The position numbers and the translations under genes are program-made. Under the pieces are notes generated by a model. That model was not told the DNA's origin. It ran no database searches and worked only from the letters and a program-made list of their open reading frames with translations. Below, one piece after another: positions 2,330-31,875 of a stretch of DNA of 64,000 nt (its first letter is position 1; every line of letters begins with the position of its first letter). The stretch is from Bacillota bacterium. GTDB taxonomy: Bacteria; Bacillota; Sulfobacillia; Sulfobacillales; JAIMBI01. Location of the stretch: contig JAJZYZ010000007.1 in NCBI GenBank assembly GCA_021797815.1, positions 3,118 to 67,117 on the forward strand. The letters run 5' to 3'.

Positions 2330-3019
2330 TTAAGCCGTGGCGCTGACATGGGACACGAGAAACTCGACGGCATCTGTCGGAAATTCGTTCCGGAGGGCAT
2401 CCGAGATGGCGTCGGCCACGGTCGGGTCGTGCCGGGTCCAGCTGTCCAGGAGCCGCGCGGGCTTCTCCTGCCACCATGGAGCTTTTACAAACGCCTCCTC
2501 GGCCAGCGCCAGCAGCAGGACGCCGCCAACAAACCGGCGGGCTTCTTCCCTGCTCGCGTCAAGAAAACTTGCGTAGAGACCCGAAACGCGCCTGGCGGCT
2601 TTTTCAATCTCCCCGGGGACCGGCGCCTCCGGTCCCCGCTCCCAATATTCGCGGGCCAGTGCCACGAGGCGTTCCCACTCCGGCGTCTTACCCCACAAAA
2701 GGCGGGCCCTCGCCAGCATGCCGGTCACGGTGCCGACATTGCCTGCCCGTTCGTACACCGTGATGACATGTTCATACCAGGAGGCGGGAGCTTCGAACGC
2801 CTCGACCGGAAGGTGGCCGTACGCGTCGCGGACGCGCCGGAACTCGCCGCCGGCCGTCACTACCACCAGATCAATGTCGCTGTGGGGGCCGAAGTCACCT
2901 GTGGCCCGCGATCCCGAGAGTCCTACGCTCACCGCGTCGGGGTGCCGTTCGCGCCACCACTCGACCAGGTCGGCGGGGACCTCCCAGAAAGGGCAAGGCT
3001 TCGGTTCTTCCGTCGGCAT
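2330..3019 (-). CDS. Nucleotidyltransferase-domain protein
   Basis: GLSGSRATGDFGPHSDIDLVVV matches the GS-x(9-10)-DxD minimal NTase motif. The C-terminal half is helical. Confidence 0.7.
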   Translation of the reverse strand: MPTEEPKPCPFWEVPADLVEWWRERHPDAVSVGLSGSRATGDFGPHSDIDLVVVTAGGEFRRVRDAYGHLPVEAFEAPASWYEHVITVYERAGNVGTVTGMLARARLLWGKTPEWERLVALAREYWERGPEAPVPGEIEKAARRVSGLYASFLDASREEARRFVGGVLLLALAEEAFVKAPWWQEKPARLLDSWTRHDPTVADAISDALRNEFPTDAVEFLVSHVSATA

Positions 3020-3028
3020 CCGCCCGAC

Positions 3029-3487
3029 CTAGGCGTCCGCGCGCGGCGACTCTGGGGCGAACAGGTGCAGGTACGCCCCGTACCCTTCCGCTTCCAGATC
3101 GGCGCGAGGAACGAAACGCAGCGCGGCGGAATTGATGCAGTAGCGAAGACCGCCGTGCTCGCGGGGGCCGTCATTGAACACGTGCCCGAGATGGGAGTCG
3201 GCCGTGTTCGAGCGAACTTCGGTGCGGACCATGCCATGACTCCGGTCGATGCGCCGGGCTACCTCGTCCTCGGCCAATGGCCGTGTGAAGCTTGGCCAGC
3301 CGCAGCCGGAGTCGTATTTGGCCCGGGACGAAAACAGCGGAACCCCCGAGACGACGTCCACGTACAGCCCCTCTTCGTGGTGGTCCCAGAACTCATTCTG
3401 GAATGGAGGCTCGGTGGCGGCGTTTTGCGTTACCTCAAAGGCCAGGTGCGACAGCTGGGCTCGCAGGGTGTCCCGATCGTAGGTCAT
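3029..3487 (-). CDS. msrB: Peptide-methionine (R)-S-oxide reductase
   Basis: Motifs [16 protein letters not shown] and RYCINSAAL. The Met at 3487 is preceded by GGGAGGG. The longer ORF to 3595 is unlikely to be the real start. Confidence 0.9.
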
Positions 3488-3616
3488 GAGTCCCTCCCAT
3501 ATCGTTGCACGAACAACAGCATCCGCCCCTCCCATTATACGAAGGAACGGACGAGGTGACGGCCGCCGAGACTTCATGACGGCCCTCGGCGGCACGGCCT
3601 GCAGGAGACTCTTCAG

Positions 3617-4549
3617 TTACCGGGACCCGTCGCCTGCCGCCGCGGCTCCGCTTCCCACAAGGAGCCCCGACGTGGCCATCGCCTCCGCCGGTGGCGGCAC
3701 TACGAACACCTTATTGGCCGGGTTGGCCGACAGCTGCGGCAGCACCTGAAGGTACAGGTAGCGCAGCACTTCCTCTGACGTGCCCGCCTCGTGAAGCGCC
3801 AGGAACAAGACACGCGCCGCGTCGGCCTGGGCCTGCTGAATGGTCCGGATGGCCTGGGCATCGCCCTCCGCGCGAAGGATGGCCGACTGCTTGGCGCCCT
3901 CGGCCTGCAGGATGTTGCTCTGCTTGGAGCCCTCGGCGCCCAGGATCGCGGCCTGCTTCTCGCCCTCGGCCGTCAGGATGGCCGCCCGCTTCGTGCGCTC
4001 CGCCTGCATCTGCCGCTCCATAGCCTGCTGGATATCTTTGGGCGGCATGATGTCCTTGATCTCCACCCGGTTCACCCGCACCCCCCAGCGCTCCGTCACC
4101 TCGTCGAGCACGGTGCGCATGCGCTGGTTGATGTCATCACGGGAGGTGAGCGCCTGGTCCAGAGTCAGGCTACCGAACACGTTGCGGAGCGTGGTCTGCG
4201 TGAGCTGCTCGAGGGCCAGGAGATAGTTGGCCACCTGGTAGATGGCGTTCTTGGCGTCGATAATCTGGTAGTAGACGACCGTAGCCACCTGAATGGTCAC
4301 GTTGTCAGACGTGATGACGGCCTGCGGATCGATGGCGATGACCTGTTCTCGCAGGTCAATAAGCGGCAGCATCACGTCGACGAACGGCACCAGCATGGTG
4401 AGGCCGGAGGGGGCGGCGCGATGGAAGTTGCCAAGCCGCTGCACGATGCCAAGCCGGCTCTGAGGGATGATGCGCACGGAACGGGCCAGGATCAGGATGA
4501 CGAACAGGACGACCAGGATAATGACGATTGTTGAGCCCATTTCGTTCAT
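3617..4549 (-). CDS. SPFH/band-7 (stomatin/prohibitin-like) membrane protein
   Basis: N-terminal TM helix, an SPFH core (IDLREQVIAIDPQAVITSDNVTIQVATVVYYQI) and an Ala/Glu/Gln-rich coiled-coil tail. Confidence 0.9.
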   Translation of the reverse strand: MNEMGSTIVIILVVLFVILILARSVRIIPQSRLGIVQRLGNFHRAAPSGLTMLVPFVDVMLPLIDLREQVIAIDPQAVITSDNVTIQVATVVYYQIIDAKNAIYQVANYLLALEQLTQTTLRNVFGSLTLDQALTSRDDINQRMRTVLDEVTERWGVRVNRVEIKDIMPPKDIQQAMERQMQAERTKRAAILTAEGEKQAAILGAEGSKQSNILQAEGAKQSAILRAEGDAQAIRTIQQAQADAARVLFLALHEAGTSEEVLRYLYLQVLPQLSANPANKVFVVPPPAEAMATSGLLVGSGAAAAGDGSR

Positions 4550-4576
4550 CGCCTCTCCGGATTGCAGATTACGTGT

Positions 4577-5038
4577 CTAGGTATTCCCCGTGTGGCTCGG
4601 GTGAGCGTCCAGGCTCGGGTCATCTACGACGAGCCTCACGCCATCTCGAAAGGCCACCTCGACCCGGCTTCCCACGGCGAACGCACGGTCCGGCATCAGG
4701 GAACGTGCCGACCAGAACTCACCCCCGCCCAGGTCGATGAGTCCGCCGGTGGCCGTCACTTCCTCGCGCACGGTCGCATGACGCCCCACCAGATCGGGGT
4801 ACTGGGTGGTGGGCCGCGGCTTCATGCGCAGGAGATAATTGATGGTGGCCGGGCGCAGCACAAATACGCTCAGGACCGATGCCACCAAAAACACCAGCAC
4901 CTGCAGGAAGAACACGGGCAGCAAGGGAGCCAGGAGCCCCGTCACGACTGCGGCCGCCGCCTCATAGATGAGATAAAAGGACAGGGTGAACATCTCGCCG
5001 GCTACAGCGGCGATTGCGATGATGAGCCAGAAGACCAC
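4577..5038 (-). CDS. NfeD-family membrane protein (partner of the SPFH protein)
   Basis: Three N-terminal TM helices and a C-terminal OB-like soluble domain. It lies immediately upstream of the SPFH gene, which is the classic NfeD-SPFH operon arrangement. Confidence 0.85.
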   Translation of the reverse strand: MVFWLIIAIAAVAGEMFTLSFYLIYEAAAAVVTGLLAPLLPVFFLQVLVFLVASVLSVFVLRPATINYLLRMKPRPTTQYPDLVGRHATVREEVTATGGLIDLGGGEFWSARSLMPDRAFAVGSRVEVAFRDGVRLVVDDPSLDAHPSHTGNT

Positions 5039-27107: not shown

Positions 27108-28139
27108 TTGAACGAGGCACGGCCGGTGGACCTGTTCGCGGTCCAGCCATATATGACGCTCGCCGACTACGCGAGCGAGGACGCGTTCTCCCACCACATG
27201 GCGCGCCTCCTCCACGATATGGAAAGCCTCCGGCATGCAGAGGAGGCAGTGGTAGTCCTGCCCGAGGATCTGGCCACCTTTCTCGCCCTTTTGGGCGCGC
27301 CGCCGGAGGTGAGGGAGCAGCCGACCCTCGATGCGGCATTTGCCGTCATCGGCCGCGCCCGCATGGCCCCCCTTGTCCGGGTGATGCTGGCGCGCCGGAC
27401 TTTCCGGCTGCCGGTAGCGTTCTTTTATCTGGTGGCCGAACACGTATACGGCGCCTGGTACCGGACGATGCAGGAGCTTTCGCGCGAGCATCGGGTCACG
27501 CTGGTGGCCGGATCGGCGCTTCTTCCGGTAAACCGTCTCGGATATGGCGATGATCGGTTCGAGGCCCGTGCCGGTGGTGTCTACAATTCCTGCCTCACGT
27601 TCGGCCCCGAGGGGCAGGTCCTGTCTGTCACCCACAAGAGGAACCTGGTGCCGACGCAGGAGGATCGCCTCTACCTGTCACGAGGACCCGAACTTCCTCC
27701 GTCTCCGATTCCGGTGGGAGTCCATCGCCTCGGCGTCGCCATCTGCTACGATGCCTTCGCCCGAGCACACACAGAGCATGAACCCGGATTCGAGCCCCTG
27801 GTGCCCAAATTGGCGGCCCTTGGCGCCGACATCATTGCCCAGCCTTCGGCCAACCCATGGCCGTGGTCCGCTCCCTATATATTCCGGCAACGGGACGACC
27901 ACCGATCGCGAAGCGAGCAGTGGCACCAGGAAGGCCTATGGGAGTCCATGCGCCGCGAGCCCTCAATCCGAGCCGGCATCAACCCCCAGCTCCTTGCCCT
28001 CCTGTTTGACACGCACTTCGACGGACAGAGCGTCATCTATGTCCGCGACGGTGACACCGTGCGGCCAGTTGTCGAGGCGGCACGGGGAGAGGCGAGCCCG
28101 GACGCGGAAACCGTGATCGGATGGTCATTGCCGGCTTAA
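27108..28139 (+). CDS. Carbon-nitrogen hydrolase (nitrilase-superfamily) protein
   Basis: The Glu-Lys-Cys triad context is VVVLPEDL, THKRNLVP and VAICYDAF. The start is TTG after GAAGGAA. Confidence 0.8.
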   Translation: MNEARPVDLFAVQPYMTLADYASEDAFSHHMARLLHDMESLRHAEEAVVVLPEDLATFLALLGAPPEVREQPTLDAAFAVIGRARMAPLVRVMLARRTFRLPVAFFYLVAEHVYGAWYRTMQELSREHRVTLVAGSALLPVNRLGYGDDRFEARAGGVYNSCLTFGPEGQVLSVTHKRNLVPTQEDRLYLSRGPELPPSPIPVGVHRLGVAICYDAFARAHTEHEPGFEPLVPKLAALGADIIAQPSANPWPWSAPYIFRQRDDHRSRSEQWHQEGLWESMRREPSIRAGINPQLLALLFDTHFDGQSVIYVRDGDTVRPVVEAARGEASPDAETVIGWSLPA

Positions 28140-29044
28140 CCTCAGCCCGGCTGGCTTCTGCAGCATGGATGACAGGTCTCATCCCGAAACTCGCCAACGC
28201 CCAGTCTCCATGTCTGTGCGACACAGTGACTGCCCGCACTGGCCCGAGACGTGTGGGAAGCCACCGGCACAAGGGGCTCGCTTGCAAACGACAGCCAGGG
28301 TCTGGCGGCGCTCGTGGCCGCGTCGAACGGCCAGAGATCCACACGACGTGCCGCCGTGGTACGATCCGGCGCCGCGCGTGCTCCGAGACTGGACAGCACG
28401 TGACGCTCCCGAGGCCGCCAGCAGGCATCCCTCGCCCGGCCGGCCTTCAGTGTGAAACGGTCGTGGGGACACCCGGGGCCGGGGATGCGTGCGGCACCTT
28501 CGTGTGGCCCGGCCTCTCGAGCACCCAGTGCGGCGATGCCGGCTCCCGGTCCATCGCGGCAGCGGCGGACCCGAATCTACCCTCAGCGGCATATCCGATC
28601 CCGGCGGTTCGGATGATTTTGCTCGCGCTTCCCGATCTCACCGTCATTCTCACCGTTCCCCCACGAGCGCCATCCCCGATTACGGGACGATTCCCTGCCG
28701 CGAGGCGCCCTGCCGACACTTGGATTCACCGCTTTAGATTGTGTCGTTTGGATTCTCTCTCTTTGTCCTGCCGGAGGCGTTCCCCCACTCCCGGAGCCGA
28801 CCGACTACGGACTGCGCCCGCGGGCGTTGTCGGTCAGTTCGCGGGGTGCAGGCGAATAGTGAGGCCCTCCGTCAGCGTCGCAGCGCCGAGGACGATGCCT
28901 TTCAGAACATCGCCGCCATGAACGGATGCCGGCTTTTCTTCGACAACCTCGAGGCCCACGGCACTTTCCACGGCACGGCAGCGTGCCACCAAGAGTGGCG
29001 CATTCGGTCATAATGAGCCCGGAGGGGTTGCCATCGTCGCCGAA

Positions 29045-29614
29045 GTGCCGGTCGTGGACCGCCATGGCGCTCCCCTGACCCCATGCTCGCCCGCCAAAGC
29101 CGAGGAAAACCTCCTCCTGGGGCTCGCCGACATGGTGGATGGGACGCTCAAGCTGCGTTACGCCCCCATGGCCTATCGGTCGGTGTTTCGCGCCGTGGTA
29201 AGACGCGACCGTTTCCAGTGCGCCTGGTGCGGGACCCCGGGATCCACGGTCGATCACCTGGTACCGGTATCGCGCGGGGGCCAGTCCCGCCTCGACAACT
29301 GCGTCGTCGCCTGCCGTTCGTGCAACCATTCCCGCAACAACCGTCTGCCGTCGGCCTTCGCGCACGCGACCGGCATGACGCCCGTCCACGAGCTGCTGCG
29401 CTGGTTCCTGCAGCATGAGGCCCGCCTGGTGCGAGAGGCGGAACAGGCTCTCATGATGCGGCCCGTCTCGCACTGCCGCAGCAAAGAAGAAGCCGCCGTA
29501 TGGGCGCAGGCGCACCGCGGGCAGGCGCTGGCGGCCCCTCCCGCCCTTGACGAGCCGCTCGTGACCCGCCTGAAGACGGACGTCCGGGTGAACCACGAGC
29601 TTTATCTGCCCTGA
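29045..29614 (+). CDS. PLMP-like N-terminal domain + HNH endonuclease (IshB-like mini-protein)
   Basis: The N-terminus VPVVDRHGAPLTPCSPAKAEENLLLGLADMV resembles the IscB PLMP domain. The HNH motif is CAWCG..VDHLVPVSRGG..DNCVVACRSCNHSRNN. There is no RuvC-like segment. The start is GTG with a weak SD. Confidence 0.8.
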   Translation: MPVVDRHGAPLTPCSPAKAEENLLLGLADMVDGTLKLRYAPMAYRSVFRAVVRRDRFQCAWCGTPGSTVDHLVPVSRGGQSRLDNCVVACRSCNHSRNNRLPSAFAHATGMTPVHELLRWFLQHEARLVREAEQALMMRPVSHCRSKEEAAVWAQAHRGQALAAPPALDEPLVTRLKTDVRVNHELYLP

Positions 29615-30228
29615 CTCTCGTTCAGACATGGCTTCACAGGTGCGCACTACCGCACAGTTGGCGATGGCATCCCCATGGCCACGCGCCGTCGGGGCGTGTG
29701 GATGGCTCCTCCCAGAGCGTTGCCTCACCGGGAGGGGCCGGCGTTCCAAAACGGGACAACGGAACAGAGGAAGCCTGATGGCTCACCCGTTCCGTGTTTA
29801 GTGCCGGCAACTTCATGGATCCGCGCCTATCAATTCAGGCAGAGGGAACGCCCCGATGACGGCGGGGCCGTCGGCCCTTAGGCGCGGCGCCAACTCCGGC
29901 GAGAGTATTTCTCGGTACATGGGAAGCGTGTGGGAAGGCCGCCTCCCGGGCTCACTTTGGTGAGAGACGGCCGTCGTGGTGCGTGTCGCGCTGTCGGGAC
30001 ATATGGGGCGAGACGCGTCTGTCCGGGATCGCGCCCCCCGGCTGCGGGGTGAGGCACCGGGTCGGGATCCGTTTTGTCCGGGACCGGATCACCGAGTATC
30101 CCTTTGATGCCCAAGGGCAGCTCGAGGCGTTGGCGGACATGGCATACGTCATCACGGATCGGCTCCGCGCAGCACGGGAGCCTCGCATTTCGGGCGCGTG
30201 GCCTCAACCGAAGCGCCGCATCCGGCGC

Positions 30229-31875
30229 CTACATGTTTTCGGGAATCTCGACACCGATGAGGCCAGTCGCGGTCTCCAGCACCGCAAGGACGGCCCGGAC
30301 CAGCCGGAGCCGCGCGCGGACCGTGTCCGCCTCCCCGCCCAGCACCCGGTGCTGGCGGTAAAAGCCGTGAAAGTGGCCCGCGAACTCCACCAGGTAGCGG
30401 GTCAGGAAATGCGGCGAGAGTTCTCGTGCGGCGCGGTCCACCACGTCGGGAAACGACGCCAGGTCCCAAAGGAGCGCCCGCTCCTCGTCCGAGGTCATCG
30501 GGGCGGCGGGCCCGTCGCCGACCGTCTCATGCGCTGCCTGCCGCAGGATGGAGCGGATGCGCGCGCCTGCGTACTGAACGTAGAAGACGGGGTTCGCCTG
30601 TGTGTTGAGGAGGGCCAGTCCGAGGTCAAAATCAAGCGGCGTCTCCGACGCCCGCTCGATGAAGAAGAAGCGGGCGGCGTCGACGCCGGCCTCGTCCAGA
30701 AGCTCCGTCAGCTCGACAAACTCCCCGCCGCGTTTGGACATGCGCACGGCTTCCTGGCCGCGCATGAGCCGCACCAGCTGGACAATCAGAACCAACAGCC
30801 GTGAGCCCTGGCCCGACAGGGCCTCCAGGATGGCGGTGATCCGGCTCACGTATCCGTGGTGGTCAGGCCCCAGGAGATCGATGAGCCGTTCGTAGCCCCG
30901 GTTTACCTTGTCCCAGTGATAGGCGGCGTCGGGCACGATATAGGTGAGCGACCCGTCGCTCTTCACCACCACCCGATCTTTGTCGTCCCCGAACGCGGTC
31001 GAGCGAAACCACACCGCCCCGTCCTGGTCGTAGAGATGCCCGCTCTCGCGGAGGGCGGCGATGACCCCCTCGGCCGCCCCGCTCTCGCGAAACCGCCGCT
31101 CCTCGGCCCACGAATCGTAATGGACCCGGAACCGTTCCAGCACCTCTCGCTGCCGGTCGGTGAAGAAGTCGGCGGCGAATGCGCCTAGAACCTCGTGACT
31201 CCTCGGCGCGTCTGCCCCCCGCTGGTCAAGATAGGCACGCGCCACGTCCCGAACGTAGGCGCCCGGGTACACGCCCTCCGGCCACGTGCTCTCCACCTCT
31301 TCACCAAAAAGTTCCCGAATACGCAGGTCCACCGCCTGGCCCAGCTTTAAAATCTGGACACCGGCGTTGTTCAGATAAAACTCTTTGTCCGCCCGCCAGC
31401 CGGTGAAATTAAGCAGCCGGGCGAGGCTGTCACCGAGCGCCGCGGCACGGCCGCTGACCACGTTCAACGGTCCGGTGGGATTCGCCGACACAAACTCCAG
31501 CAGGACCCGAGCGCCCTGTCCCTCGTCGCTGCGGCCGAAGGACCGGGGGTTTTCCAGCACGTCGTCGAGAATCCCGGCCAGAAACTCCACCCGGAGCCAG
31601 ACGTTCACATACCCGGGCCCGTCGGCCTGCAAGGCCCGGACGGCCGGATGCCCGGAAAATCGGGCACTCATCTCGGCGGCAATGTCGCGAGGACTCTTTC
31701 GAAGCGTGCGGGCGAGGCCGAAGGCCACGCTGGTGGCAAGGTCCGCCCGTCCCGCTTCCGTCGGTTCCGACAGCACCACGGGAGTGCCGGGCGGTGCCCC
31801 GAGGTCCTGGATGATGGCCTCGAGTGCCGCCTCCAGTTCATGACGGACCTGAGAGAGCCGGGACCGCTCAGCCAT
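30229..31875 (-). CDS. argS: Arginine--tRNA ligase
   Basis: SANPTGPLNVVSGR is the HIGH-region equivalent and RMSKRGG is KMSK-like. The DALR anticodon-binding C-terminus ends ..GVEIPENM. Confidence 0.95.
   Translation of the reverse strand: MAERSRLSQVRHELEAALEAIIQDLGAPPGTPVVLSEPTEAGRADLATSVAFGLARTLRKSPRDIAAEMSARFSGHPAVRALQADGPGYVNVWLRVEFLAGILDDVLENPRSFGRSDEGQGARVLLEFVSANPTGPLNVVSGRAAALGDSLARLLNFTGWRADKEFYLNNAGVQILKLGQAVDLRIRELFGEEVESTWPEGVYPGAYVRDVARAYLDQRGADAPRSHEVLGAFAADFFTDRQREVLERFRVHYDSWAEERRFRESGAAEGVIAALRESGHLYDQDGAVWFRSTAFGDDKDRVVVKSDGSLTYIVPDAAYHWDKVNRGYERLIDLLGPDHHGYVSRITAILEALSGQGSRLLVLIVQLVRLMRGQEAVRMSKRGGEFVELTELLDEAGVDAARFFFIERASETPLDFDLGLALLNTQANPVFYVQYAGARIRSILRQAAHETVGDGPAAPMTSDEERALLWDLASFPDVVDRAARELSPHFLTRYLVEFAGHFHGFYRQHRVLGGEADTVRARLRLVRAVLAVLETATGLIGVEIPENM

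Follow-up and report, generated by a model that had tools for sequence, protein, structure and literature searches.

A predicted PLMP-HNH nuclease gene of IshB architecture at a conserved chromosomal position in Sulfobacillus-related Bacillota, beside a pseudogene

We analysed a 64-kb stretch from the genome of a Bacillota bacterium of the order Sulfobacillales (contig JAJZYZ010000007.1 of assembly GCA_021797815.1, positions 3,118 to 67,117; hereafter the window), in which a small gene encodes a PLMP domain, such as opens the RNA-guided OMEGA nuclease IscB and its relative IsrB, followed directly by an HNH nuclease domain. A preliminary description, made from the letters of the DNA, had placed this gene for a 189-residue protein at 29045-29614, between a CN-hydrolase gene and the 3′ end of argS, had recognised in it the build called IshB, and had proposed that the DNA upstream of it, which is poor in open reading frames (ORFs), encodes a partner RNA. 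The gene and its neighbours lie where that description put them, and the ORF is present, with a GTG start (Table 1). The domains, too, are as described, and the DNA upstream is the remnant of a protein gene that is intact in relatives.

Table 1. Features of the window between the CN-hydrolase gene and argS (positions of the window)
Feature	Position	Strand	Basis
CN_hydrolase-family gene, intact, 343 residues, first in the conserved block	27108-28139	+	Pfam CN_hydrolase, E = 2.5e-10
Pseudogene of a two-domain CN_hydrolase + Amidohydro_2 gene (about 500 residues in relatives)	28169-29013	+	tblastn, DNA alignment, profile fragments, synteny
Pseudogene remnant, orthologue residues 1-38	28169-28261	+	tblastn
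Pseudogene remnant, residues 225-293, other frame	28246-28428	+	tblastn
Pseudogene remnant, residues 309-450	28436-28840	+	tblastn
Pseudogene remnant, residues 458-502, frame changed again	28861-28995	+	tblastn; ancestral TAA stop kept at 29011-29013
90-codon frame: C-terminal tail of the pseudogene (about 50 last codons) plus upstream read-through	28741-29013	+	tblastn, stop at ancestral position
Shine-Dalgarno sequence GGAGGGG (29021-29027), then in-frame ATC (29033)	29021-29035	+	direct sequence reading; compared with L008, L048, L009 and L022
PLMP-HNH gene, 189 residues from first canonical start GTG	29045-29614	+	ORF list, Pfam, alignment, dN/dS, AlphaFold2 model
PLMP domain, residues 1-45, beta-beta-alpha-beta-beta fold	29045-29179	+	profiles, RRXRR, hhalign, Foldseek; secondary structure from models
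HNH nuclease domain, residues 55-107	29207-29365	+	Pfam HNH and HNH_5, NCBIfam, hhalign
C-terminal extension, lineage-specific, helical, C..SKEEA..W motif, disordered tail	29366-29611	+	alignment of 24 homologues, model
Spacer, no coding signal	29615-30228	.	no homology detected outside the same population
SAM-I riboswitch-like match, sub-threshold	29824-29925	+	RF00162, 34.5 bits against a gathering score of 44.4
argS, converging on the HNH gene, its 3′ end facing it	30229-31875	-	ORF list, synteny; Pfam domains from the identical gene of L045

Domain architecture of the protein

The likeness of the N-terminus to a PLMP domain, which had been read from a pattern of residues, was borne out by three kinds of comparison, for IscB and IsrB PLMP domains ranked first in profile searches, in hhalign and in Foldseek. 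RRXRR is the Pfam family that covers the N-terminal half of IscB; the whole protein matches it at no better than E = 0.1, with residues 2-32 aligned to profile positions 2-32, and 22 of 26 N-terminal segments match its positions 2-33, the best of them at E = 5e-5. A profile of 54 columns, built from the N-terminal segment alone, was searched against the whole PDB, where its top three matches were all PLMP domains, those of IsrB (E = 7e-5), OrufIscB (7e-3) and TbaIscB (0.04), with nothing beyond these at E < 1. In hhalign, the same profile aligned over residues 2-32 with P0086, a bona fide IscB with a full RRXRR domain and HNH, at 92.8% probability and E = 3.9e-7. The PLMP domain modelled by itself with AlphaFold2 (predicted local distance difference test, pLDDT, 83) had as its top five Foldseek matches in the PDB TbaIscB, HfmIscB, OgeuIscB (two entries) and DtIsrB, with probabilities of 0.96-1.00, query-normalised template-modelling (TM) scores of 0.65-0.74 and root-mean-square deviations (rmsd) of 1.1-1.8 Å; the next match had a probability of 0.08, and none below rank five exceeded 0.23. 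The fold of this model fits the IsrB PLMP domain as published, a small beta-sheet with one helix (PMC9581776). Foldseek with the whole protein returned weak HNH-domain matches only, the informative search being the domain-level one.

The complete HNH motif that had been noted downstream of this domain scores 39.6 bits against Pfam HNH (PF01844, cut-off 21.4) and is also matched by HNH_5. In NCBIfam it matches guided_IscB best (E = 1.8e-12) and Cas9d next, and hhalign pairs the HNH half with residues 159-238 of P0086 (98% probability, E = 2.7e-13). A zinc knuckle (C59/C62/C90/C93, in the form CxxC...CxxC) and the predicted catalytic residues D70-H71, N85 and N94-H95 are invariant in an alignment of 24 homologues, and the profile of this alignment, searched against the PDB, matched the small HNH nickase 4H9D, TbaIscB twice (once in its PLMP and once in its HNH domain) and the PLMP region of IsrB. 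No RuvC-type Pfam family matches the 189-residue protein, as the preliminary description had stated; the alignment of the IscB model to it is limited to positions 184-245 of 314, and that of the RRXRR model to positions 2-33 of 174. The AlphaFold2 model of the full-length protein has a pLDDT of 89 and a predicted TM-score (pTM) of 0.81.

What follows the HNH domain, about residues 108-189, is an extension of some 80 residues conserved within the family, in which both the C..SKEEA..W motif and the final proline are invariant; in a 50%-identity representative library it was matched by only one full-length cluster and two fragments. PADLOC returned generic HNH-domain matches only and made no defence-system assignment. 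Judged by sequence and models, the protein combines a PLMP domain with an IscB-type HNH domain and has no counterpart of RuvC, the bridge helix or the TAM-interacting (TI) domain.

The same library holds four proteins of low-G+C origin (P0031, P0041, P0050 and P0063; 460-540 residues) with what seem to be three to four tandem PLMP-like segments followed by an HNH or degenerate HNH module, an architecture that we did not recognise.

A decayed gene upstream

Relatives carry, between their small CN-hydrolase and HNH genes, an intact gene of about 500 residues with CN_hydrolase and Amidohydro_2 domains (Pfam). When the intact orthologues from two of these loci (L009 and L048; loci of relatives and of other samples carry the prefix L) were used as tblastn queries, they matched alternating frames of the window with a summed E of 7e-18, and a profile of 14 orthologues likewise recovered collinear fragments in alternating window frames. 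A global DNA alignment of the window with the L009 gene is collinear at about 70% identity, with many small indels; the flanking functional genes of the two are 79-83% identical. The core of the CN_hydrolase domain is deleted, by about residues 39-224 (some 190 codons) as judged from tblastn, or nearer 250-290 codons as judged from a gap of about 750 bp in the DNA alignment, and the remaining pieces are separated by at least three frameshifts. Between the intact L009 and L048 proteins identity is 86%, and between the fragments of the window and these proteins it is 34-56%. Because the core is deleted, the frame is broken at least three times and Pfam finds no match in the window frames of 28169-29013, we read the upstream 900 bp as a pseudogene; i.e., this ORF-poor DNA is a decayed CN-hydrolase/amidohydrolase gene and not a guide-RNA gene. 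The decay is not an assembly error, since an independent contig from another sample (L045), 99.6% identical over 6.8 kb without gaps, has the same structure.

The proposal that 28140-29044 encodes the partner RNA of an OMEGA-related locus was not sustained by these comparisons: the upstream 900 bp derives from a conserved protein gene that relatives have kept intact, and it is not conserved together with the HNH gene as non-coding DNA. The 90-codon frame that had been put forward as the only other coding candidate fares no better, in that its tail matches residues 458-502 of the L009 orthologue at 56% identity (51% for that of L048, and 57% over 30 residues for that of L008), so that it is the C-terminal tail of the pseudogene and not an independent gene. 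Remnants of GT87 and of a 419-residue gene, both present in some relatives, were sought in the flanks by tblastn, and none was found in the window.

The reported lack of three-nucleotide periodicity in the flanks was confirmed: between codon phases, G+C differs by 0.02-0.14 in 28150-29049 and by 0.04-0.18 in 29650-30099, against 0.20-0.46 within the HNH gene and its flanking genes. The flanks are ORF-poor in a restricted sense, for they do contain long open frames (e.g., 266 residues at 28121-28921), as is expected at a G+C content of about 66%, but no such frame has codon periodicity or a Pfam match. Scans for promoters and terminators gave no signal beyond shuffled expectation.

No guide RNA beside the gene

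No guide-RNA gene adjoins the HNH gene. In the loci of relatives, 29-310 nucleotides, mostly 40-150, separate the upstream stop from the conserved PVVD codon (a count that takes in the non-conserved N-terminal codons), and in the GT87 subclade the HNH start overlaps the upstream stop; after the HNH stop, the gap to the next gene is 5-26 nucleotides in many of these loci. Because the gaps are so short, an omega-RNA of about 200-300 nucleotides does not fit on either side. For the region from -120 to +20 in 22 loci, RNAalifold predicted 0 base pairs, and the only conservation in these leaders is a -10-like box (TATAAT/TATACT) and an AAGGAGG Shine-Dalgarno sequence. In the window itself, the DNA upstream of the gene folds no more stably than shuffled sequence (z = +0.26 for 300 nucleotides, z = -0.55 for 905).

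Searches for known RNA families pointed the same way. Rfam includes the HEARO family, which is the omega-RNA of IscB. Upstream of the gene there was no significant Rfam match at E <= 10, the sole listed one being a trypanosomatid small nucleolar RNA model at E = 9.5. In the whole window no family reached its gathering score, and of the two weak matches at E <= 1 neither is a guide RNA. The 16 relatives' loci scanned at gathering scores, 7 of them also at E <= 1, yielded no match to any guide-RNA family; the sole Rfam matches were c-di-GMP-I riboswitches in L029 (25-118, 75 bits) and L031 (2394-2489, 66 bits), both some 2.6 kb ahead of the HNH gene and unrelated to the finding. An upstream partner RNA was therefore rejected on the joint evidence of synteny, pseudogene homology, short leaders, zero consensus pairs, lack of fold stability and lack of a significant Rfam match.

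A fixed chromosomal position

A scan of species-representative genomes, with neighbours mapped by tblastn, listed at least 36 loci, one per genome record, all from Sulfobacillus or related uncultured Bacillota. About 25 of the 36 listed share a conserved block, hutU(-), small CN-hydrolase(+), CN-hydrolase/Amidohydro_2(+), in one subclade only GT87(+), HNH(+), argS(-), agmatinase(-) and speE(-); the identity of the HNH protein to that of the window falls to as little as 44% among the loci that share it. Across 17 genomes, the pairwise identities of HNH and argS are correlated with a Spearman coefficient of 0.91, which is to be read as a trend of co-divergence because the pairs are not independent and the p-value is inflated. 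The ratio of nonsynonymous to synonymous substitution rates (dN/dS) of the HNH gene is 0.042 against L009, at a dS of about 0.9, and 0.080 against L008.

Nothing at the locus resembles a mobile element. The window has a single copy of the HNH gene, and the search for terminal repeats and for hairpins of insertion-sequence (IS) type, the latter recommended as a check in the preliminary description, found short chance matches only. Probes from L009 detected no TnpA or TnpB homologue in the window or the listed loci, save in the IS607-type insertion of L009 itself, and no Y1-type TnpA occurs among the Pfam labels of the called neighbours, although no search with a Y1 probe of its own was made. 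L009 is the closest species-level relative among the listed loci (94% amino-acid identity), and its element, located at about 2610-4955 and encoding a serine-recombinase TnpA (3143-3715) and a TnpB (3631-4944), is inserted precisely between the amidohydrolase and HNH genes. It is missing from the window and from all other listed loci, and is an independent insertion with no bearing on the mobility of the HNH gene.

The nearest sister PLMP-HNH family belongs to Symbiobacterium and other Symbiobacteriaceae and is again chromosomal, beside uvrA: in Symbiobacterium thermophilum (AP006840.1; L049), the PLMP-HNH gene is divergent from uvrA across a gap of 157 nucleotides, and in another genome of the same set (L049, L050 and L051) an MFS gene stands between the two. 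No IS genes were seen around the PLMP-HNH genes of the Symbiobacteriaceae.

Two short contigs from other samples (L046 and L047) begin 2 nucleotides upstream of the HNH ORF, the assemblies breaking exactly there; this may reflect strain heterogeneity, e.g., the presence or absence of an IS, or of the pseudogene in place of the intact gene.

The start codon

In L008 and L048, the HNH gene starts at a TTG or ATG right after GGAGG, adjoining or overlapping the upstream stop. In these two, the closest relatives with data, the amidohydrolase stop lies 14-31 nucleotides before the annotated HNH start, and in L008 it overlaps an alternative ATG. In the window and L009 (29013-29047 and, in L009, 4969-5003), the ancestral ATG is 32 nucleotides from the V codon of VPVVD and hence out of frame. 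That V codon is GTC in L009, which excludes a GTG start there; in the window it is the GTG at 29045, the sole canonical start, 17 nucleotides after the Shine-Dalgarno sequence. An in-frame ATC lies 5-7 nucleotides past the Shine-Dalgarno sequence in the window, in L009 and in L022 (upstream of 5001). Because dN/dS between the window and L009 is 0.04, the gene has evidently stayed functional, and since it has, its sequence suggests AUC (the ATC at 29033) as a non-canonical start, with the GTG at 29045 as the alternative. In several other family members, too, no canonical start is suitably spaced from the Shine-Dalgarno sequence.

Relation to known systems

The name IshB implies an IS context, i.e., an element of IS200/IS605 type with a transposase, defined ends and multiple copies. 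The 189-residue protein has the IshB architecture, an assignment that goes by the build given in reviews (PLMP and HNH without RuvC; PMC11610941, PMC10734217, PMC13284715) and not by a published set of IshB sequences, and its gene lies outside such a context. As IshB is outlined in two of these reviews (PMC11610941, PMC10734217), the likeness extends to a PLMP domain followed directly by HNH, to the lack of RuvC, bridge helix and TI domain, and to a length of about 180-190 residues. The gene of the window differs in being a fixed, single-copy, vertically inherited chromosomal gene, in having nearby no homologue of the L009 TnpA or TnpB, no IS-type ends and no adjacent conserved RNA, and in the conserved C-terminal extension of its product. 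We found no experiments on IshB in these reviews, which describe it by domain architecture only; two of them speculate that it is a nickase of the target strand or a representative of an ancestral, RNA-compatible state (PMC10734217, PMC13284715).

IscB itself (Pfam RRXRR and HNH; NCBIfam NF040563) shares both domains with the protein. However, its residues of about 33-158 (RuvC-I, bridge helix and RuvC-II) and the parts after HNH (RuvC-III and TI domain) are absent from the protein of the window, which scores 47 bits against an NCBIfam cut-off of 175, and the locus has neither a detectable omega-RNA nor an IS context. The OMEGA nickase IsrB (PDB 8DMB) is the best PDB match of the N-terminal profile (E = 7e-5; TM 0.74, rmsd 1.2 Å) but differs in having RuvC, in lacking HNH and in its dependence on an omega-RNA, about 300 nucleotides long and encoded 5′ of its gene. 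In both IscB and IsrB the omega-RNA is encoded immediately 5′ of the gene, and PLMP touches its terminal hairpins; in IsrB, the PLMP domain contacts these hairpins as well as the RuvC/TI core (PMC9581776). The best single PDB sequence match for the HNH core (E = 8e-9) is Gme HNH (PDB 4H9D), a small stand-alone nicking endonuclease that, like the protein studied here, has no known need of a guide RNA but that has neither the PLMP domain nor the C-terminal extension of this family.

Discussion

We hold it very probable that the PLMP-HNH gene is a stand-alone HNH nuclease gene of IshB build, fixed in its host, vertically inherited and without an adjacent guide RNA. In the Sulfobacillus-related lineage, it is a single-copy chromosomal gene under strong purifying selection, outside any mobile OMEGA element, and has a short leader of its own, with a -10 box and a Shine-Dalgarno sequence in most relatives and an overlap of its start with the upstream stop in the closest. 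Its product is probably an active metal-dependent HNH nuclease or nickase, in which the PLMP domain, by analogy with IsrB, may serve as a nucleic-acid-binding or adaptor module. Because all the parts of IscB and IsrB that hold the guide-target duplex are missing, cleavage directed by a guide RNA in the manner of IscB is unlikely for the predicted protein.

Several points weigh against this account. Neither the window nor L009 has a canonical start well spaced from the Shine-Dalgarno sequence, so that expression would depend on a putative ATC start or on a poorly placed GTG. The position is not universal, because five of the 36 listed loci have other neighbours, in which inspection by eye saw frames resembling transporters and two-component systems and no transposases. 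Rfam does not hold every type of omega-RNA, as is evident from its lack of a match beside the tnpB of L009; a partner RNA encoded elsewhere is compatible with the sequence data; and both activity as a nuclease and the part played by PLMP are presumptive.

The weakest of the alternatives is the one from which this work set out, namely an omega-like guide RNA, encoded in 28140-29044, as the partner of the PLMP-HNH protein. The genuine PLMP domain, the lack of coding periodicity in the upstream 900 bp and the place of the omega-RNA immediately 5′ of IscB and IsrB genes, where PLMP contacts its terminal hairpins (PMC9581776), would all fit, but the same 900 bp align collinearly with a protein gene that relatives have kept intact, and in relatives 29-310 nucleotides or a stop/start overlap are all that precedes the HNH gene. 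Since conserved structure, fold stability and a significant upstream Rfam match are all lacking and the gene is not mobile, we give this proposal almost no credence. A guide or other RNA supplied in trans, or overlapping the coding sequence, would turn the protein into a domesticated IshB acting as an RNA-guided or RNA-dependent OMEGA effector, and here the binding of RNA hairpins by the IsrB PLMP domain (PMC9581776) and the speculation in reviews on target-strand nicking or an RNA-compatible ancestral state (PMC10734217, PMC13284715) speak in favour. However, the protein has none of RuvC, the bridge helix, TI and WED, which hold the guide-target duplex, the locus shows no conserved candidate RNA, and the 64 kb contain no Rfam family at gathering score and two weak matches at E <= 1 that are not guide RNAs, all of which makes such an effector improbable.

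Two further alternatives concern the state of the genes. The HNH gene of this genome might itself be starting to decay through loss of its start, the whole 2.1 kb then being in the course of degeneration: the ancestral ATG/TTG is out of frame, the sole canonical GTG (29045) lies 17 nucleotides past the Shine-Dalgarno sequence, and both neighbouring slots have decayed. Yet the ORF is intact with every invariant residue in place, dN/dS against L009 is 0.04 at a dS of about 0.9, L009 has the same spacing of 32 nucleotides between ATG and V codon (the arrangement is thus old, and selection has acted since), and three loci have the in-frame ATC 5-7 nucleotides past the Shine-Dalgarno sequence; we regard incipient decay as quite improbable. 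Nor is there more than a very slight chance that the 266-residue frame at 28121-28921 is a functional truncated amidohydrolase gene. It covers most of the remnant in one long frame, and a gene caller annotated it in L045, but it has no codon periodicity, no Pfam match and no CN_hydrolase domain, its homologous pieces lie in alternating frames, and it is 28-36% identical to orthologues that share 86% among themselves.

With the stand-alone, host-fixed nuclease gene as the preferred reading, a PLMP-HNH gene of IshB build would be a stable and selected host gene across a Bacillota lineage, with a sister family in Symbiobacterium, which argues against reading an OMEGA element into every IshB-like gene. 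Its cultured carriers would allow RNA dependence and function to be examined, and in the annotation a supposed non-coding RNA region gives way to a documented pseudogene. We offer it as a doubtful but specific idea that the Sulfobacillus and Symbiobacterium genes are ancient host-resident or domesticated IshB that work without a guide RNA encoded in cis. If so, they would show what PLMP-HNH did before, or after, it joined IscB, and Sulfobacillus thermotolerans Kr1 and Symbiobacterium thermophilum IAM 14863 would provide IshB-type representatives in cultured hosts for the question of RNA dependence.

Flanking features

More than 20 loci have, in the corresponding place, an orthologue (39-82% identical) of the intact CN_hydrolase gene at the left edge of the locus (tblastn). 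The 614 bp downstream of the HNH gene recur at 97-100% identity only in contigs of the same population (L045-L047), and are a species-specific spacer in a slot of variable gene content: relatives have there an APH gene(-) (L008, L010 and L048, among the closest), an AAA-type ATPase gene(-) (L011), a gene(-) for 138 residues (Sulfobacillus), a gene(+) for 419 residues (another subclade) or nothing (L016, L025 and L044). An APH remnant in these 614 bp was considered and rejected, tblastn and DNA alignment doing no better than shuffled controls; Pfam matched none of the open frames in it, and tblastx comparisons with all loci and with the remainder of the window yielded compositional noise only.

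Within this spacer, the SAM-I-like match (E = 5.4e-4) is the sole Rfam match at E < 0.9 in the 64 kb. Its alignment is mismatched at consensus positions of the P1 helix, J1/2 and P3, its fold is no more stable than shuffles (z = 0.13), no SAM element occurs in the 16 relatives' loci scanned, and no gene follows it on the same strand, the only neighbour being the converging argS. A metagenome scan with an 18-nucleotide core of the match returned 32 matches, all unrelated and due to chance. It is possible that 29824-29925 is an orphan SAM-I relic or a false positive. Beyond it, on the minus strand, the start of argS and the stop of an agmatinase-family gene overlap by 8 nucleotides (31868-31875), and the order argS-agmatinase-speE-arginine decarboxylase is kept across the lineage.

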